Of a stretch of 5,172 nt of DNA, positions 1-5,172 are shown piece by piece. The first letter of the stretch is position 1. Each line of letters opens with the position of its first letter. The stretch comes from a virus (Duplodnaviria; Heunggongvirae; Uroviricota; Caudoviricetes), in IMG/VR virus record IMGVR_UViG_2778261249_000003, positions 1 through 5,172 of that record. The stretch is one strand, 5' to 3'. A program made the translations under genes and the position numbers. The notes under the pieces are model-generated. The model had not been told where the DNA came from, ran no database searches, and was given only the letters and a program-made list of their open reading frames with translations.

Positions 1-534
1 CTGCGTATTCAGCAGGCGTTTGAAGGTTTAAGCGTCGCCGGGTCGGTGGGGGCCTATCAGTATCATGGTCGCAGTGCCGACGGGCGTGTCGCGGATATTT
101 CTGTCACCAGTCCGTCTCCGGCCTGCGTCACCATCTCTGTGCTGTCACGTGAAAATAACGGTGTGGCATCCGAAGACCTGCTGGCGGTGGTGCGCAACGC
201 CCTTAATGGTGAGGACGTCAGACCGGTGGCCGACCGTGTGACCGTGCAGTCTGCCGTCATCGTTGAATACCAGATAAATGCCACGCTTTACCTTTATCCT
301 GGCCCCGAAAGCGAACCCATTCGCGCTGCCGCCGTGAAAAAATTGGAAGCGTATATCACGGCACAGCACCGGCTGGGGCGCGACATCCGACTGTCTGCCA
401 TTTATGCCGCTTTGCATGTGGAAGGCGTGCAGCGTGTCGAACTGGCTGCACCGCTGGCCGACATCGTGCTCAACAATACGCAGGCGTCTTTCTGTACCGA
501 ATACAGCGTCGTGACCGGAGGCTCGGATGAGTGA
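1..534 (+). CDS. J: Baseplate assembly protein J, C-terminal part (5' end lies outside the window)
   Basis: Frame 1 is open from nt 1 with no stop until TGA at 532-534; the ORF track's start at 46 is an internal GTG. Sits directly upstream of the tail protein I homolog and overlaps its start (ATGAGTGA at 527-534), the J-I-H order of P2-like tail clusters. Assignment rests on synteny and recalled similarity, not a search. Confidence 0.8.
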   Translation: MRIQQAFEGLSVAGSVGAYQYHGRSADGRVADISVTSPSPACVTISVLSRENNGVASEDLLAVVRNALNGEDVRPVADRVTVQSAVIVEYQINATLYLYPGPESEPIRAAAVKKLEAYITAQHRLGRDIRLSAIYAALHVEGVQRVELAAPLADIVLNNTQASFCTEYSVVTGGSDE

Positions 535-1138
535 TTCGCGACTGCTGCCGACCGGCTCATCACCGCTTGAAGTCGCTGCCGCAAAAGCCTGTGCGGAAAT
601 TGAAAAAACGCCGGTCAGTATTCGTAAGCTGTGGAACCCGGACACCTGCCCGGCAAATCTGCTGCCGTGGCTGGCGTGGTCATTTTCGGTTGACCGCTGG
701 GATGATAAGTGGCCGGAAGCGACAAAACGCGCTGTTATCCGCGATGCGTATTTCATTCACTGCCATAAGGGCACTATAGGCGCAATCCGGCGTGTGGTGG
801 AGCCGCTCGGCTATCTGATTGAGGTGAGGGAGTGGTGGCAGCTCAACGAGGAGCCGGGGACGTTCCGCATCGTTGTTGGCGTGCTTGAGCAGGGTATTAC
901 CGAGGAAATGTATCAGGAGCTGGAGCGCCTCGTTACTGATGCAAAACCGGCAAGCCGCCATCTGACGGGACTGGCTATCAGTTTAAGTACAACCGGCAAC
1001 ATTTTTGCCGGTGCGGGATGCTATCACGGCGACGCCCTGACGGTTTATCCCTACACCCCGGAGGCCATTATTGTCGGAGGGGATTATTTCCCGGCCTCGG
1101 CCATTCATTTAATTGATAACCTGAGAGTAAACGCATGA
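527..1138 (+). CDS. I: Phage tail (baseplate) protein I
   Basis: 203-aa ORF starting MSDSRLLPTGSSPLEVAAAKA. GGAGG at 517-521 lies 5 nt upstream of ATG 527. Start overlaps the J stop and the stop (1136-1138) overlaps the H start (ATGA at 1135-1138). Position between J and the tail fiber gene. Confidence 0.88.
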   Translation: MSDSRLLPTGSSPLEVAAAKACAEIEKTPVSIRKLWNPDTCPANLLPWLAWSFSVDRWDDKWPEATKRAVIRDAYFIHCHKGTIGAIRRVVEPLGYLIEVREWWQLNEEPGTFRIVVGVLEQGITEEMYQELERLVTDAKPASRHLTGLAISLSTTGNIFAGAGCYHGDALTVYPYTPEAIIVGGDYFPASAIHLIDNLRVNA

Positions 1139-2502
1139 CAGTGAAATACTACGCCATTCTGACTAATCAGGGCGCGGCACGGCTGGCTAACGCGACGATG
1201 CTCGGCAGTAAGCTGAATCTGACGCAAATGGCCGTTGGTGATGCGAATGGTGTCTTGCCGACACCAGACCCGGCACAGACAAAACTGATTAATCAGAAAC
1301 GCATTGCACCGCTGAATCTTCTGAGTGTTGACCCGAACAACCAGAGCCAGATTATTGCGGAGCAAATCATCCCTGAGAACGAGGGCGGATTCTGGATCCG
1401 TGAGATTGGGCTTTATGATGATGAAGGCGTACTCATTGCGGTGGCGAACTGCCCGGAAACGTACAAACCGCAGTTGCAGGAAGGCAGTGGTCGTACCCAG
1501 ACTATCCGCATGATTCTGGTTGTCACGAATACCGAAGCTATTACGCTGAAAATCGACCCATCGGTGGTACTGGCGACCCGTAAATACGTGGATGATGAAG
1601 TCCTGGAATTAAGGCTGTATGTGGATGAACAGATGAGAAACCACATTGCCGCACAGGATCCTCATACCCAGTATGCACAGAAACATAATCCGACATTTAC
1701 CGGAGAACCAAAAGCGCCGACGCCTGCCGCAGGAAATAACACCACGCGGATTGCGACCACTGAGTTTGTTCAGGCCGCTATTACCGCTCTGATTAACGGT
1801 GCGCCAGCCACGCTGGACACACTGAAAGAAATTGCCGCAGCCATTAACAATGACCCGAAATTCAGCACCACCATTAACAATGCGCTGGCACTGAAAGCTC
1901 CGCTGTCGAGTCCCGCACTTACCGGAACGCCAACAGCACCTACTGCGGCACAGTCGGTCAACAATACACAGATTGCCACCACGGCTTTTGTGAAATCAGC
2001 AATTGCGGCAATGGTGGGTTCTGCCCCTGCGGCACTGGATACACTGAATGAACTGGCGGCGGCGCTGGGGAATGACCCTAACTTTTCAACAACAGTGCTT
2101 AATGCACTGGCAGGCAAACAACCGCTGGACAATACGCTGACTAATTTGAGTGGAAAGGATGTTGCTGGTCTTCTCGCATACCTTGGTTTGGGAGAAGCGG
2201 CAAAACGGAATGTGGGAACAGGGGAAAATCAGATACCTAGTATGTCAGAATGGACATCTGGGACAGGATGGAATAGAGACCCGTCGGGGAGAATAATACA
2301 GCGGGGATTTGCTATGACATCAAGTCAAACTAACATTTTATTCCCGATACCATTTCCGTATGACGATTTCGAAGTTATCGTTTGTGCAGCAGATACAGGA
2401 GCAAATAAAGGGGCCGTAAATGTGTTGCGAAAATCGAGGCAGGGGTTTTCTGTTTCACAGGTTGGAAGTATGCCAGTCGCATACAGATGGATAGCGGGGT
2501 GA
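1135..2502 (+). CDS. H: Tail fiber protein H: constant N-terminal shaft (aa 1-350) plus the currently expressed variable C-terminal tip (aa 351-455)
   Basis: 455-aa ORF. N-terminus (MTVKYYAILTNQGAARLA...MAVGDANG...GGFWIREIGLYDDEGVLIAVAN) is typical of P2/Mu-type tail fiber N-terminal domains. Contains two tandem ~75-aa repeats in the shaft. The left 26-bp crossover site lies in-frame at 2171-2196 (codons L-L-A-Y-L-G-L-G-E). Sequence downstream of the site is AT-richer. Confidence 0.9.
   Translation: MTVKYYAILTNQGAARLANATMLGSKLNLTQMAVGDANGVLPTPDPAQTKLINQKRIAPLNLLSVDPNNQSQIIAEQIIPENEGGFWIREIGLYDDEGVLIAVANCPETYKPQLQEGSGRTQTIRMILVVTNTEAITLKIDPSVVLATRKYVDDEVLELRLYVDEQMRNHIAAQDPHTQYAQKHNPTFTGEPKAPTPAAGNNTTRIATTEFVQAAITALINGAPATLDTLKEIAAAINNDPKFSTTINNALALKAPLSSPALTGTPTAPTAAQSVNNTQIATTAFVKSAIAAMVGSAPAALDTLNELAAALGNDPNFSTTVLNALAGKQPLDNTLTNLSGKDVAGLLAYLGLGEAAKRNVGTGENQIPSMSEWTSGTGWNRDPSGRIIQRGFAMTSSQTNILFPIPFPYDDFEVIVCAADTGANKGAVNVLRKSRQGFSVSQVGSMPVAYRWIAG
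2171..2196. other. Left crossover site for DNA inversion (gix/cix/pix-like, 26 bp): TTCTCGCATACC-TT-GGTTTGGGAGAA
   Basis: Two 12-bp half-sites around a 2-bp core (TT at 2183-2184). The right half-site GGTTTGGGAGAA is the exact reverse complement of the left half-site of the 3954-3979 site. Perfect 15-bp inverted repeat: 2183-2197 TTGGTTTGGGAGAAG versus 3953-3967 CTTCTCCCAAACCAA. Half-sites fit the TTnTCnnAAACC-type pattern of Hin/Gin-family sites. Confidence 0.85.
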
Positions 2503-2507
2503 TTGAA

Positions 2508-2945
2508 ATGTATAAATTTGATCCAAAGAATGCATTATTCTATCCTGCCGCGTCAATTTCCGATTATAAATTGAGCGAAGATGAAATCGCCACATTCACT
2601 GATATTAGCGAGGAGGATGCAACCGAGTTTTTAGGATTCCCGCCGACTGGAAAAATCAGAGGGTCGGACGGTTATGGCAATCCTGCATGGGTTGAAATAC
2701 CTCCACCATCACATGAGGAACTTATTGAACAGGCCGAATCAGAGAGGCAATTATTGATTAACCATGCCAACGAATACATGAACAGTAAACAATGGCCTGG
2801 TAAAGCGGCTATTGGTCGTCTGAATGGTGAGGAACTGGCGCAATATAATTTGTGGCTGGATTATCTGAACGCACTGGAACTGGTTGATACCTCCAGTGCG
2901 CCAGATATTGAATGGCCTACGCCTCCGGCAGTTCAGGCCAGATGA
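2508..2945 (+). CDS. Tail fiber assembly (chaperone) protein, expressed orientation
   Basis: ORF ending ...LAQYNLWLDYLNALELVDTSSAPDIEWPTPPAVQAR, the conserved C-terminal motif of phage tail-fiber assembly proteins. ATG 2508 is preceded by GGGG at 2496-2499 (8-nt spacer) and follows the H stop (2500-2502). An in-frame ATG at 2487 would overlap H by 16 nt and has no obvious SD, so the start is ambiguous between 2487 and 2508. Confidence 0.8.
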   Translation: MYKFDPKNALFYPAASISDYKLSEDEIATFTDISEEDATEFLGFPPTGKIRGSDGYGNPAWVEIPPPSHEELIEQAESERQLLINHANEYMNSKQWPGKAAIGRLNGEELAQYNLWLDYLNALELVDTSSAPDIEWPTPPAVQAR

Positions 2946-3510
2946 CATCCGGCGCGGTGCTGGTATCTGTTGCCGTCACCGCGTCAATGTAATCCAGCAC
3001 AGCGTTAAGTCGGGTGGTTTCTGCCTGCGTCAGTTTACGTCCGGCCTGCAATTTCAGTTGAATCAGACTGATGGAAGCCATTGCAGTATCAATCAGCGAC
3101 TGGCGCTGTGCTTCTGCTGCATCTACTGCGGCGCTATGCTGTGCCTCAGTATCTGTCACCCATTTCTCACCATCCCATTTATCGTATGGCGTTAACGGTG
3201 AAAGCGTGACATAACCGTCTTTGATGGCACCGATATAATCCACTGTAACAGCTGCGCCATTTTCGATTGAGTAAACAGTCTCATTGCGGTGGTCTTCTTC
3301 ATGGCTCCATCCCTTACCCGTAAATACTGCCACTTTCCCCGGAATGTATTCGCCCGGGTCAATACCAGTGGAACAGGCGGGCATACTTACGCCAGTATTA
3401 ATATATTCATCAGACCAGCCCGTATACTCAGATGTTTCAGCATCATAATAAAAACAACGCATATCGCCCGGCACTGTAGCCAGCCCATTTTCATCAAAAA
3501 CAGGTTTCAT
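2917..3510 (-). CDS. Tail fiber assembly (chaperone) protein, alternate copy (Tfa') inside the invertible segment
   Basis: 197-aa minus-strand ORF with C-terminus ...LNAVLDYIDAVTATDTSTAPDVIWPELPEA, the same motif as the + strand chaperone, but an unrelated N-terminal half. Its ATG (3508-3510) overlaps the stop of the upstream minus-strand fiber cassette (TAATG). GAGGG lies about 9 nt upstream on the minus strand. Its 3' end overlaps the + strand chaperone gene by 29 bp (2917-2945). Confidence 0.85.
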   Translation of the reverse strand: MKPVFDENGLATVPGDMRCFYYDAETSEYTGWSDEYINTGVSMPACSTGIDPGEYIPGKVAVFTGKGWSHEEDHRNETVYSIENGAAVTVDYIGAIKDGYVTLSPLTPYDKWDGEKWVTDTEAQHSAAVDAAEAQRQSLIDTAMASISLIQLKLQAGRKLTQAETTRLNAVLDYIDAVTATDTSTAPDVIWPELPEA

Positions 3511-4007
3511 TATTTAGCCCTCACCAGAAAGTTAAATGCAATATTTCGCGGTCTGACAGCAACAAAATTCACACCATCACCCACAGAGTTACTGGTGAAA
3601 TTAAATCGTGAAAATCCTGGCTGATTTCCGGCGATGCCATCATGAAAGTTAATTGCGTGTCCCGCACCTCCGCCTATATTCCCGGCAAACTGAGAAAAGT
3701 TTGTAGCTTCCTGCCAGCTTAATAATTCGCGACCACCATCGGCACCTCGCCCGTCATCCCAGATACGAATGAAATCACCGCGGGCTTCAGGTAATACCAG
3801 TGAAGGAAACACTTTCGCCAGCACAGGGTAATCAGAGGCAGAAAATTTCGCCCCGTTGAACTTCAAAAACACCATACTGGACCAGCTGTCGATTACAGTA
3901 TTTGGCATTGCAGCGGACGGCCAGAAGAACGGAACGCCAATAGCTGGAGCACCTTCTCCCAAACCAACGTTTATGAAAATGCAGAGATAACGGGCAAGTG
4001 GCATCAT
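3510..4007 (-). CDS. Silent alternative tail fiber C-terminal cassette (Sv'-like; tail-collar-type receptor-binding tip), not joined to a fiber N-terminus in this orientation
   Basis: Minus-strand ORF, 165 aa as drawn from a Met-Met at 4007. The right crossover site (3954-3979) lies within it, encoding G-L-G-E in the same codon phase as the left site in H. The downstream 151 aa (GAPAIGVPFFWPS...LPEARGDFIRIWDDGRGADGGRELLSWQ...) carry a motif recalled as the phage tail-collar domain. Functional extent after inversion would be 3510..3966 fused to H codons 1-350. Confidence 0.75.
   Translation of the reverse strand: MMPLARYLCIFINVGLGEGAPAIGVPFFWPSAAMPNTVIDSWSSMVFLKFNGAKFSASDYPVLAKVFPSLVLPEARGDFIRIWDDGRGADGGRELLSWQEATNFSQFAGNIGGGAGHAINFHDGIAGNQPGFSRFNFTSNSVGDGVNFVAVRPRNIAFNFLVRAK
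3954..3979. other. Right crossover site for DNA inversion (26 bp): TTCTCCCAAACC-AA-CGTTTATGAAAA, inverted relative to the left site
   Basis: Core AA at 3966-3967 is TT on the minus strand. The reverse complement TTTTCATAAACG-TT-GGTTTGGGAGAA matches the left site in its core and entire right half. Located 55 bp upstream of the invertase start codon. Confidence 0.85.
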
Positions 4008-4034
4008 CTCCGGTTTTTATTCAGGGGGATGCTC

Positions 4035-4628
4035 ATGCTTATTGGCTATGTACGCGTGTCAACAAATGACCAGAACACGGAATTGCAGCGTAACGCGCTG
4101 GAGTGCGCAGGATGTGAGCTGATTTTTGAGGATAAAATCAGCGGCACGAAGTCCGACAGGCCGGGGCTGAAAAAACTGCTCAGAACATTATCGGAAGGTG
4201 ACACTCTGGTTGTCTGGAAGCTGGACCGGCTGGGGCGTAGTATGCGGCATCTGGTCATTCTGGTTGAGGAGCTGCGCGAACGCGGCATTAATTTTCGCAG
4301 CCTGACGGATGCCATTGATACCAGTACGCCGATGGGGCGTTTTTTCTTTCATGTGATGGGTGCCCTGGCTGAAATGGAACGAGAGCTCATTGTCGAGCGG
4401 ACTCGGGCCGGGCTGGAAGCGGCCAGAGCCAAAGGTCGTATTGGTGGCAGACGTCCTAAACTCACCGCGAGTGAGTGGGAGCAGGCCGGGCGTTTGCTGG
4501 CTGCAGGGGAGTCACGTCAACGCGTGGCACTGATTTTTGATATTGGTCTGTCCACGCTCTATAAAAAATTTCCCTCATCAGCGACAAAGAATAAATTGTG
4601 TCATCCCTTAGCCAACCGGGACAAATAG
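4035..4628 (+). CDS. Serine-recombinase DNA invertase (Gin/Cin/Pin/Hin family)
   Basis: Translation MLIGYVRVSTNDQNTELQRNAL...LVVWKLDRLGRS...GINFRSLTDAIDTSTPMGRFFFHVMGALAEMERELIVERT...RIGGRRPKL... has the resolvase/invertase catalytic domain with the nucleophilic Ser at codon 9 (TCA 4059-4061) and a C-terminal HTH region. AGGGGG at 4023-4028 lies 6 nt upstream of ATG 4035. The ORF-track start at 4029 would leave no spacer after that SD. The gene lies immediately outside the right crossover site, as in the Gin/Cin/Pin arrangement. Confidence 0.93.
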   Translation: MLIGYVRVSTNDQNTELQRNALECAGCELIFEDKISGTKSDRPGLKKLLRTLSEGDTLVVWKLDRLGRSMRHLVILVEELRERGINFRSLTDAIDTSTPMGRFFFHVMGALAEMERELIVERTRAGLEAARAKGRIGGRRPKLTASEWEQAGRLLAAGESRQRVALIFDIGLSTLYKKFPSSATKNKLCHPLANRDK

Positions 4629-4687
4629 CCTGACATCTCCGGCACAACTGAAAATACCACTCACCCATTAACCACGGAGTTGAACGG

Positions 4688-5172
4688 ATGAGTGACTATC
4701 ATCACGGCGTGCAGGTGCTGGAGATTAACGACGGCACCCGCGTCATTTCCACCGTATCCACTGCCATTGTCGGCATGGTCTGCACGGCCAGCGATGCGGA
4801 TGCGGAAACCTTCCCCCTCAATAAACCGGTGCTGATTACCAATGTGCAGAGCGCAATTGCAAAGGCCGGTAAAAAAGGCACGCTGGCGGCATCGTTGCAG
4901 GCCATCGCCGACCAGTCAAAACCGGTCACCGTTGTCGTGCGTGTGGAAGACGGCACCGGCGACGATGAAGAAACGAAACTCGCGCAGACCGTGTCCAATA
5001 TCATCGGCACCACCGACGAAAACGGCCAGTACACCGGACTGAAAGCCCTGCTGGCGGCGGAGTCGGTAACCGGTGTTAAACCGCGTATTCTCGGAGTGCC
5101 GGGACTGGATACCAAAGAGGTGGCTGTTGCACTGGCATCAGTCTGTCAGAAGCTGCGCGCTTTCGGGTATAT
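4688..5172 (+). CDS. FI: Tail sheath protein FI, N-terminal part (3' end lies outside the window)
   Basis: ATG at 4688 preceded by GGAG at 4676-4679 (8-nt spacer). Frame is open to the window end (161 codons, no stop); the six-frame track omits it for lack of a stop. Translation [54 protein letters not shown]... matches my recollection of the P2 FI sheath N-terminus. Confidence 0.88.

Follow-up and report, generated by a model that had tools for sequence, protein, structure and literature searches.

Site-specific inversion of the Gin/Cin/Pin type, probably assisted by Fis, very likely swaps the receptor-binding tip of the tail-fibre protein H in a P2-like phage; we put the probability of this reading at about 0.93. 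The window, by which we mean the whole stretch of DNA analysed here (5172 bp), contains a split fibre gene. ORFs of 455 and 501 aa, the first read in the window as it stands and the second after inversion, run in frame across a crossover site and use alternative 3' parts encoded on opposite strands. The invertible segment extends from position 2185 to 3965 (1781 bp, ~1.78 kb) and has two states, both of which are found in sequenced Escherichia coli genomes. The mechanism, which is the textbook switch of G, C and P segments, and, effectively, the exact sequence in both states are already known. The locus serves mainly as a clean positive control, in which a programmed inversion and its protein product were reconstructed from raw sequence and confirmed to the residue by public genomes.

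The tail-fibre region of a complete P2-like prophage

The element that carries the locus is a complete P2-like (Peduovirus) prophage of E. coli, and the window corresponds to its tail-fibre region. The gene order, J-I-H-G(tfa)...FI inside a prophage with P2-type genes, is that of a P2-type (Peduoviridae) tail module. Over its whole length, the window is 99.8% identical to prophages of the poultry isolates E5, 64.1 and GPEC1258. Portal, terminase, capsid, lysis, tail and ogr genes are all present in the near-identical prophage of E5. A tailocin was considered as the source of the locus and rejected, given the portal, terminase, capsid, lysis and ogr genes of that prophage. In megablast searches, the constant parts of the window show 96–97% nucleotide identity to phages pro483 and S164 and to the P2-like phage of O157:H43 T22 (KC618326), in each of which a DNA invertase is annotated at the matching position. 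The features of the window are as follows (coordinates, strand, description).

1..534 (+), baseplate gene J, 3' part (P2 gpJ-like), constant; Pfam Baseplate_J, 1.7e-17; annotated in E5 as baseplate assembly protein
527..1138 (+), tail protein I (P2 gpI-like), constant; Pfam Tail_P2_I, 5.3e-56
1135-2502 (+), tail-fibre gene H, whole, 455 aa
1135..2184 (+), constant part of H, residues 1-350; Pfam Phage_tail_fib N-terminal, 1.3e-62
2171..2196 (+), left crossover site (pix/cix-like), 26 bp, TTCTCGCATACC TT GGTTTGGGAGAA; core 2183-2184
2185..2502 (+), current fibre tip, 105 aa, gp53-like C-terminal domain; Pfam Gp53-like_C, 4.1e-07; PHROG tail fibre families
2508..2945 (+), chaperone (tail-fibre assembly) of the current tip, 145 aa; Pfam Caudo_TAP, 4.2e-31; PHROG 188, 6e-53
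2917..3510 (-), chaperone (tail-fibre assembly) of the alternative tip, 197 aa; Pfam Caudo_TAP, 3.2e-27; 64% identity to e14 TfaE
3510..3965 (-), silent alternative tip, 151 aa, tail-collar type; PHROG 3100 tail fibre, 1.9e-52; PHROG 523 tail collar fibre, 1.4e-41
3510-4007 (-), ORF from 4007 to 3510, 165 aa, consisting of the leader and the silent tip
3954..3979 (+), right crossover site, 26 bp, TTCTCCCAAACC AA CGTTTATGAAAA; core 3966-3967
3966..4007 (-), leader, 14 codons, MMPLARYLCIFINV; outside the segment, start of a short ORF that reads on into the silent tip, whichever of the two that is
4035..4628 (+), serine DNA invertase of the Gin/Cin/Pin/Hin family, 197 aa, catalytic Ser9; Pfam Resolvase, 3.1e-52, and HTH_7, 1e-12
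4053..4124 (+), probable recombinational enhancer (Fis sites) within the 5' end of the invertase gene; homology to the P1 cin enhancer
4688..5172 (+), tail sheath gene FI, 5' part, constant; Pfam Gp18_domIII_N, 3.6e-14; annotated as phage tail sheath protein

The constant part of H (1135..2184) lies outside the invertible segment and is the same in the E5 and E7 orientations. Each of the alternative tips is followed by its own Caudo_TAP (U/Tfa) gene, at 2508-2945 on the plus strand and at 2917-3510 on the minus strand, respectively, and these two chaperone genes overlap tail to tail by 29 bp. In the sequence TAATG at 3508-3512, the silent tip ends and its 197-aa chaperone gene begins with overlapping stop and start codons, so that the two would be co-translated after inversion. 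The G+C content is 44–50% inside the segment versus 52–60% in the flanks, which fits imported cassettes. The late promoter for H is presumably located upstream of the window, as in P2. For the invertase gene, a simple scan of 2400-4750 gave no sigma-70-like promoter, and promoter and terminator hits were no more numerous than in shuffled sequence.

Crossover sites and the reconstructed fusion gene

The two 26-bp sites, each an imperfect 12-bp dyad about a 2-bp core, are inverted relative to each other and have matching cores, TT in the left site and AA (reverse complement TT) in the right one. No inverted repeat in the window is longer than that formed by the two sites (2171-2197/3953-3979, 27 nt, 81% complementary), and the stretch that is exactly identical between them is ~15 bp long (TTGGTTTGGGAGAAG). 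A search with a degenerate 12-2-12 pattern returned only 2 matches in the window versus 0.00 expected from 200 shuffles, a comparison that overstates independence because the pattern was built from these sites. Extra crossover sites were absent from the window even with 3 mismatches allowed, as were half-sites beyond those in the two sites. The presence of two sites only points to the simple two-state version of such switches. Multi-inversion systems and shufflons, exemplified by p15B Min, R64 Rci and the three-site prophage of enteropathogenic E. coli (EPEC), were rejected on the same ground, and also because the recombinase is of the serine rather than the tyrosine type.

A preliminary description of this DNA had proposed that the silent cassette is matched in phase to the fibre gene, and the codons at both sites agree with it. 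Codons 346-354 of H (2170-2196) encode L-L-A-Y-L-G-L-G-E, and the core TT at 2183-2184 takes positions 2-3 of codon 350 (CTT, 2182-2184). Across the right site, the minus-strand ORF encodes I-F-I-N-V-G-L-G-E, and the core TT (plus-strand AA, 3966-3967) again takes positions 2-3, here of a GTT codon. With the core at these codon positions in both frames, the fibre gene stays open whichever way the segment lies. Inverting 2183-3967, 2184-3966 or 2185-3965 in silico yields one and the same ORF of 501 aa, in which residues 1-350 of H are followed by 151 residues (...AYLGLGEGAPAIGVPFFWPS...FLVRAK) that replace the 105-aa tip; this 151-residue part reads GLGEGAPAIGVPFFWPS...FLVRAK. The continuous fibre of 350 + 151 residues that had been predicted is hence open on re-translation, and it is intact in the genomes of E7 and APEC17. 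When the fusion was inspected for a stop codon or a frameshift, and real isolates for an ORF that is not continuous, the 501 residues proved to be uninterrupted in E7, APEC17 and B7A.

The phase match had been taken as strong evidence for a functional module. It is real and functional, but it is not special to this locus, being conserved throughout the family that comprises the Mu G, P1 C and e14 P segments. The peptides encoded at the sites are FIQNLGLQE in Mu S, IIQNLGLQE in Mu S', VIQYLGLRE in P1 S, ALENLGLGE in e14 StfP and IFINVGLGE in e14 StfE, with the core at positions 2-3 of the Leu or Val codon. The match is thus inherited with the site across the family and represents the standard design of such systems. 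The extent of the cassette also needs adjustment. It had been placed at 3510-4007, of which 3510-3965 indeed moves, but 3966-4007 (14 codons) lies outside the invertible segment; the leader bases would stay where they are and would not join the fibre.

Both orientations occur in public genomes

To look for the inverted state, complete genomes of E. coli were searched with a probe of 601 bp that extends across the expected fusion junction. The probe matched E7 and APEC17 at 100% over its full length, and the un-inverted junction, as in the window, was found with a 100% match in E5, 64.1 and GPEC1258. The window inverted in silico aligns with E7 and APEC17 without gaps at 99.79% over 5172 bp. 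By contrast, the un-inverted window aligns with E7 in three blocks, and the breakpoints between them, 2183-2197 and 3953-3970, are the two crossover sites. Exact copies of the 501-aa protein are recorded on 113 contigs of the public protein collection, and exact copies of the 455-aa form on 124. Both states exist in nature, at roughly equal frequencies, as a reversible switch should produce.

In the five independent assemblies of the inverted form that we examined, the 197-aa assembly gene comes after the 501-aa gene, with the 145-aa assembly gene on the opposite strand; a 118-aa gp53-like ORF was called in three of them and an adjacent recombinase gene in four. In E7, the ORF composed of the leader and the now silent gp53-like tip is annotated as a gp53-like domain protein, and the gene call for it in the public collection has 118 aa. 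Outside the flip, the two forms differ by ~0.2%, and the prophage begins at identical chromosomal coordinates in E5 and E7. The invertase accession WP_000905097.1 is common to the annotations of E5, E7 and APEC17. From such orientation differences between near-identical prophages of different isolates, we infer that this lysogen switches; the rate of switching is likewise an inference. PGAP, the annotation pipeline of NCBI, breaks the 501-aa gene of the inverted state, although intact, into two pseudogenes marked 'partial', which matters for the annotation of prophages.

Alternative tips and their chaperones

The silent tip is 95–98% identical to the fibre tips of phages 500465-2, 606R2 and mEp213, which comprise a P2-like, a Mu-like and a lambdoid phage, and 41% identical to StfE of e14. 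Its match to Pfam Collar is below threshold (16.3 versus 24 bits), and a sequence search against solved structures gave only a marginal match, to the collar region of T4 gp37 (E 0.0098). The identity of the silent tip as a fibre part is therefore drawn from its PHROG matches and from the homologous phage fibres. The same structure search returned no match for the 197-aa chaperone.

A diverged copy of the cassette in B7A allowed substitutions to be compared. Five synonymous and three non-synonymous differences were counted in the silent tip (pN/pS 0.19, from small counts), versus 22 synonymous and seven non-synonymous in the 197-aa chaperone (pN/pS 0.10, likewise from small counts). The excess of synonymous changes in the tip and its chaperone would fit maintained function. 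Together with the occurrence of the inverted form in real genomes, where its ORF is intact, this excess lends support to the earlier view of the cassette as a functional alternative module.

The invertase and its probable enhancer

The protein encoded at 4035..4628 aligns end to end with the crystallised Gin of Mu (PDB 3uj3, 1.2e-94; also 4m6f) and is 87% identical to PinE of e14, 80% to Mu Gin and 79% to P1 Cin. It has the composition of a small serine recombinase, namely, a resolvase catalytic domain with an N-terminal serine (Ser9, in MLIGYVRVS) and a C-terminal helix-turn-helix. In Hin, residues Gln151, Arg154 and Leu155 contact Fis and the enhancer, and they are conserved in invertases but not in resolvases (PMC3798978). 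The helix EWEQAGRLLA of the present invertase is the same as that of Gin in the PDB alignment and probably contains the equivalent residues, the Hin numbering having been mapped by our own reading.

Positions 4053-4124 correspond by homology to a part of cin, nucleotides 19-90, that the P1 record (NC_005856) labels 'enhancer of Cin-mediated C-segment inversion'. The region includes two blocks that are invariant or nearly so across the window, pinE, cin and gin. Two 15-mers of the G-N13-C kind bound by Fis, at 4056-4070 and at 4105-4119 (the latter read by eye), are candidate sites. Their centres are 49 bp apart, and the spacing of the Fis sites in Hin is 48 bp. Positions 4128-4142, considered as the second Fis site, were dropped because their distance of 72 bp from the first does not fit this spacing, and were replaced by the conserved block 4105-4119. 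The distance from the centre of the first candidate to the right-site core is 96 bp; in Hin, the proximal Fis site is ~100 bp from hixL, the hix site itself being 26 bp long (PMC3798978). By homology, 4053-4124 is probably a recombinational enhancer with Fis sites.

Proposed mechanism and alternative explanations

The constant part of H, located to the left of the segment, supplies the start codon and the shaft to both fibre forms, the segment itself offering two tip-chaperone pairs that face each other. In the mechanism that we propose, the invertase (4035-4628) would bind the two 26-bp sites as dimers, and host Fis, bound to the enhancer in the 5' coding region of the invertase gene, would probably assist. 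Staggered cuts at the 2-bp TT core would be followed by rotation of the half-sites through 180 degrees and by religation. Form 1 is the 455-aa fibre with the gp53-like tip, followed by the 145-aa chaperone, and form 2 the 501-aa fibre with the collar-type tip, followed by the 197-aa chaperone. A population of lysogens would release two kinds of virions with different receptor specificity and, by extension, different host ranges. The locus is also relevant for predicting the host range of phages from poultry-associated E. coli.

The main selected role of the switch might instead be defence of the host: in one orientation, the leader (ATG at 4007) and the silent tip would together block the adsorption of other phages. 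Such an effect has been reported for e14. According to Kirigo et al. 2025, inversion there creates StfE2, composed of the stfE leader and a gp53-like C-terminus, which prevents T2 and other phages from adsorbing (PMC12529663). The leader in the window is homologous to the start of e14 stfE (MPFACYFFIFINVGLGE versus MMPLARYLCIFINVGLGE), with ~80% nucleotide identity over the region from the site to the invertase gene, and the ORF of 119 aa that results from inversion has a C-terminal domain of the gp53-like type, which belongs to the Pfam family described for StfE2. Nevertheless, we consider defence unlikely as the main role. The present prophage is complete and apparently functional rather than a cryptic remnant, so that a fibre switch has an obvious use. 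Furthermore, the recombination site dictates most of the leader sequence, the leader ORF showed no promoter and no ribosome-binding site at a good distance, and identity between the gp53-like tip and the C-terminus of e14 StfP is no more than 27%. There is similarly little reason to expect that the 'silent' cassette is not fully silent, that is, that the inverted state makes a 119-aa gp53-like protein equivalent to StfE2. If the prophage does make this protein, the fibre switch of an intact P2-like phage would at the same time give the lysogen phase-variable superinfection exclusion or defence. A role in defence and a role in host range are not mutually exclusive.

Two further explanations dispense with an active switch. 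The observed orientations could have been fixed long ago in separate lineages, leaving a frozen and inoperative relic in this prophage, and it is true that the orientation differences are observed between isolates only. Yet the invertase ORF is intact, retains the catalytic serine and is annotated under the same accession in E5, E7 and APEC17, and its sites match functional pix and cix sites. The ~0.2% divergence outside the flip, the shared prophage start coordinates of E5 and E7 and the nearly even numbers of the fibre forms (113 versus 124 contigs) also argue for a working switch, making a relic very improbable. Even less credence, to the point of being negligible, is due to general (RecA) homologous recombination between the repeats or to an assembly artefact. 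Inverted repeats can recombine in principle, and assemblers sometimes mis-orient segments flanked by repeats. However, an identical stretch of ~15 bp is far below efficient RecA substrates and does not confuse assemblers, a dedicated invertase with matching sites adjoins the segment, and many complete assemblies made independently contain the inverted form.

Comparison with known inversion systems

The closest relative of the present system is the P segment of e14, a cryptic prophage of E. coli K-12 (stfP-tfaP/tfaE-stfE, pinE), with which it shares gene order and orientation. The chaperone genes of e14 also overlap by 29 bp tail to tail. The e14 site that adjoins pinE is identical to the right site of the window in all 26 bp, and the left site is similar to other sites of the pix and cix type. 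The segments are similar in length, 1781 bp here versus 1797 bp in e14, and PinE-mediated inversion of the P segment has been quantified by qPCR (PMC12529663). By contrast, e14 is a defective remnant in which the fibre is reduced to a stub (StfP, 209 aa), whereas the window belongs to a complete P2-like prophage with a constant fibre part of 350 aa. The current gp53-like tip and the StfP C-terminus are also divergent, with an identity of only 27%.

The G segment of Mu (Sc with Sv/U or Sv'/U', gin) and the C segment of P1 (cin) share the overall design: the constant part of the fibre lies outside the segment, two opposed tip-chaperone pairs lie inside and the invertase gene is adjacent. As in the window, the sites of Mu and P1 are of the 12-2-12 type, with the core at codon positions 2-3 and the (L/V)GLxE motif. 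The core is TT here, in P1 and in e14, but TC in Mu. An enhancer at the 5' end of the invertase gene is common to the Mu and P1 systems and, by homology, probably to the present one. The differences concern size and context. The segments of Mu (3 kb) and P1 (4.2 kb) contain far longer variable parts, and the host phages are Mu-like and P1-like rather than P2-like.

Within P2-like phages, fibre invertases accompany the same module, J-I-H-tfa/tfa'-tip'-invertase-FI, in pro483, the O157:H43 T22 phage (KC618326), S164 and prophages of EPEC E2348/69. The tips of pro483 are 37% and 47% identical to the two tips of the window and represent different cassettes. A Fin invertase of the Salmonella prophage Fels-2 was reportedly described by Kutsukake in 2006. 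Literature searches on pro483 and on invertases of Peduoviridae gave nothing useful. One of the P2-like prophages of EPEC E2348/69 has three sites and undergoes multi-inversion, versus two sites here. In the fibre segments of EPEC P2-like prophages, inversion within single cultures was demonstrated by sequencing and PCR (PMC4272514). To the pool of exchangeable cassettes that circulates among P2-like, Mu-like, P1-like and lambdoid phages of enterobacteria, the present locus adds one tip pair, combining a gp53-like with a collar-type tip.

Fibre gene and its annotation

In genomes with the inverted orientation, the fibre gene joins the constant part to the tip that is silent in the window:

L001 (E. 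coli E7) 2252-3757, inverted-state fibre gene, also found in L003 (APEC17) and L004 (B7A); equals window 1135-2184 plus inverted 3510-3965

RefSeq/PGAP splits this gene into two pseudogene pieces of 390 nt and 468 nt, both labelled 'incomplete; partial in the middle of a contig'. Despite these calls, the 501-aa fibre ORF is intact, and the protein has its own GenBank entries (ASJ36301.1 and others). The pseudogene calls are an annotation artefact linked to the invertible state.

The constant shaft contains a ~74-aa unit in two tandem copies, NPTFTGEPKAPTPA...ATTEFVQAAI...LDTLKEIAAAINNDPKFSTT and SPALTGTPTAPTA...ATTAFVKSAI...LDTLNELAAALGNDPNFSTT, which we take to be an ordinary fibre-shaft repeat:

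1689-1943, repeat D2, spacing 222 nt

G+C content is 44-50% over the invertible segment (window 2100-3900) versus 52-60% in the genes on either side (baseplate, invertase and sheath), consistent with horizontal exchange of the tip and chaperone cassettes.

Comparison with related invertible systems

Three further features lie within or next to the segment, and another at the end of the invertase:

2917-2945, 29-bp overlap of the 3' ends of the convergent tail-fibre assembly genes
2855-2872 / 2981-2998, inverted repeat
3966-4007 (-), short leader ORF, MMPLARYLCIFINV
4575-4628 (+), invertase C-terminal extension of ~15 residues, ...SSATKNKLCHPLANRDK

The invertase extension, which ends within 60 bp of the start of the sheath gene, does not align to Gin (193 aa), Cin (186 aa) or PinE (184 aa). 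The inverted repeat mirrors the homology between the C-termini of the assembly genes (LDYL/I..A). Their 29-bp overlap is the same in pro483 (L006 3070-3098) and in tfaP/tfaE of e14 (L008 3518-3546). The leader ORF starts outside the invertible segment, with GGAG directly 5' of ATGATG (a poor spacing), and in either orientation reads into the tip that is then silent, yielding an ORF of 165 aa now and 119 aa once the segment is inverted. The leader shows homology to the beginning of e14 stfE (L008 4620-4656), whose inversion product, StfE2, has been reported to block phage adsorption (PMC12529663).
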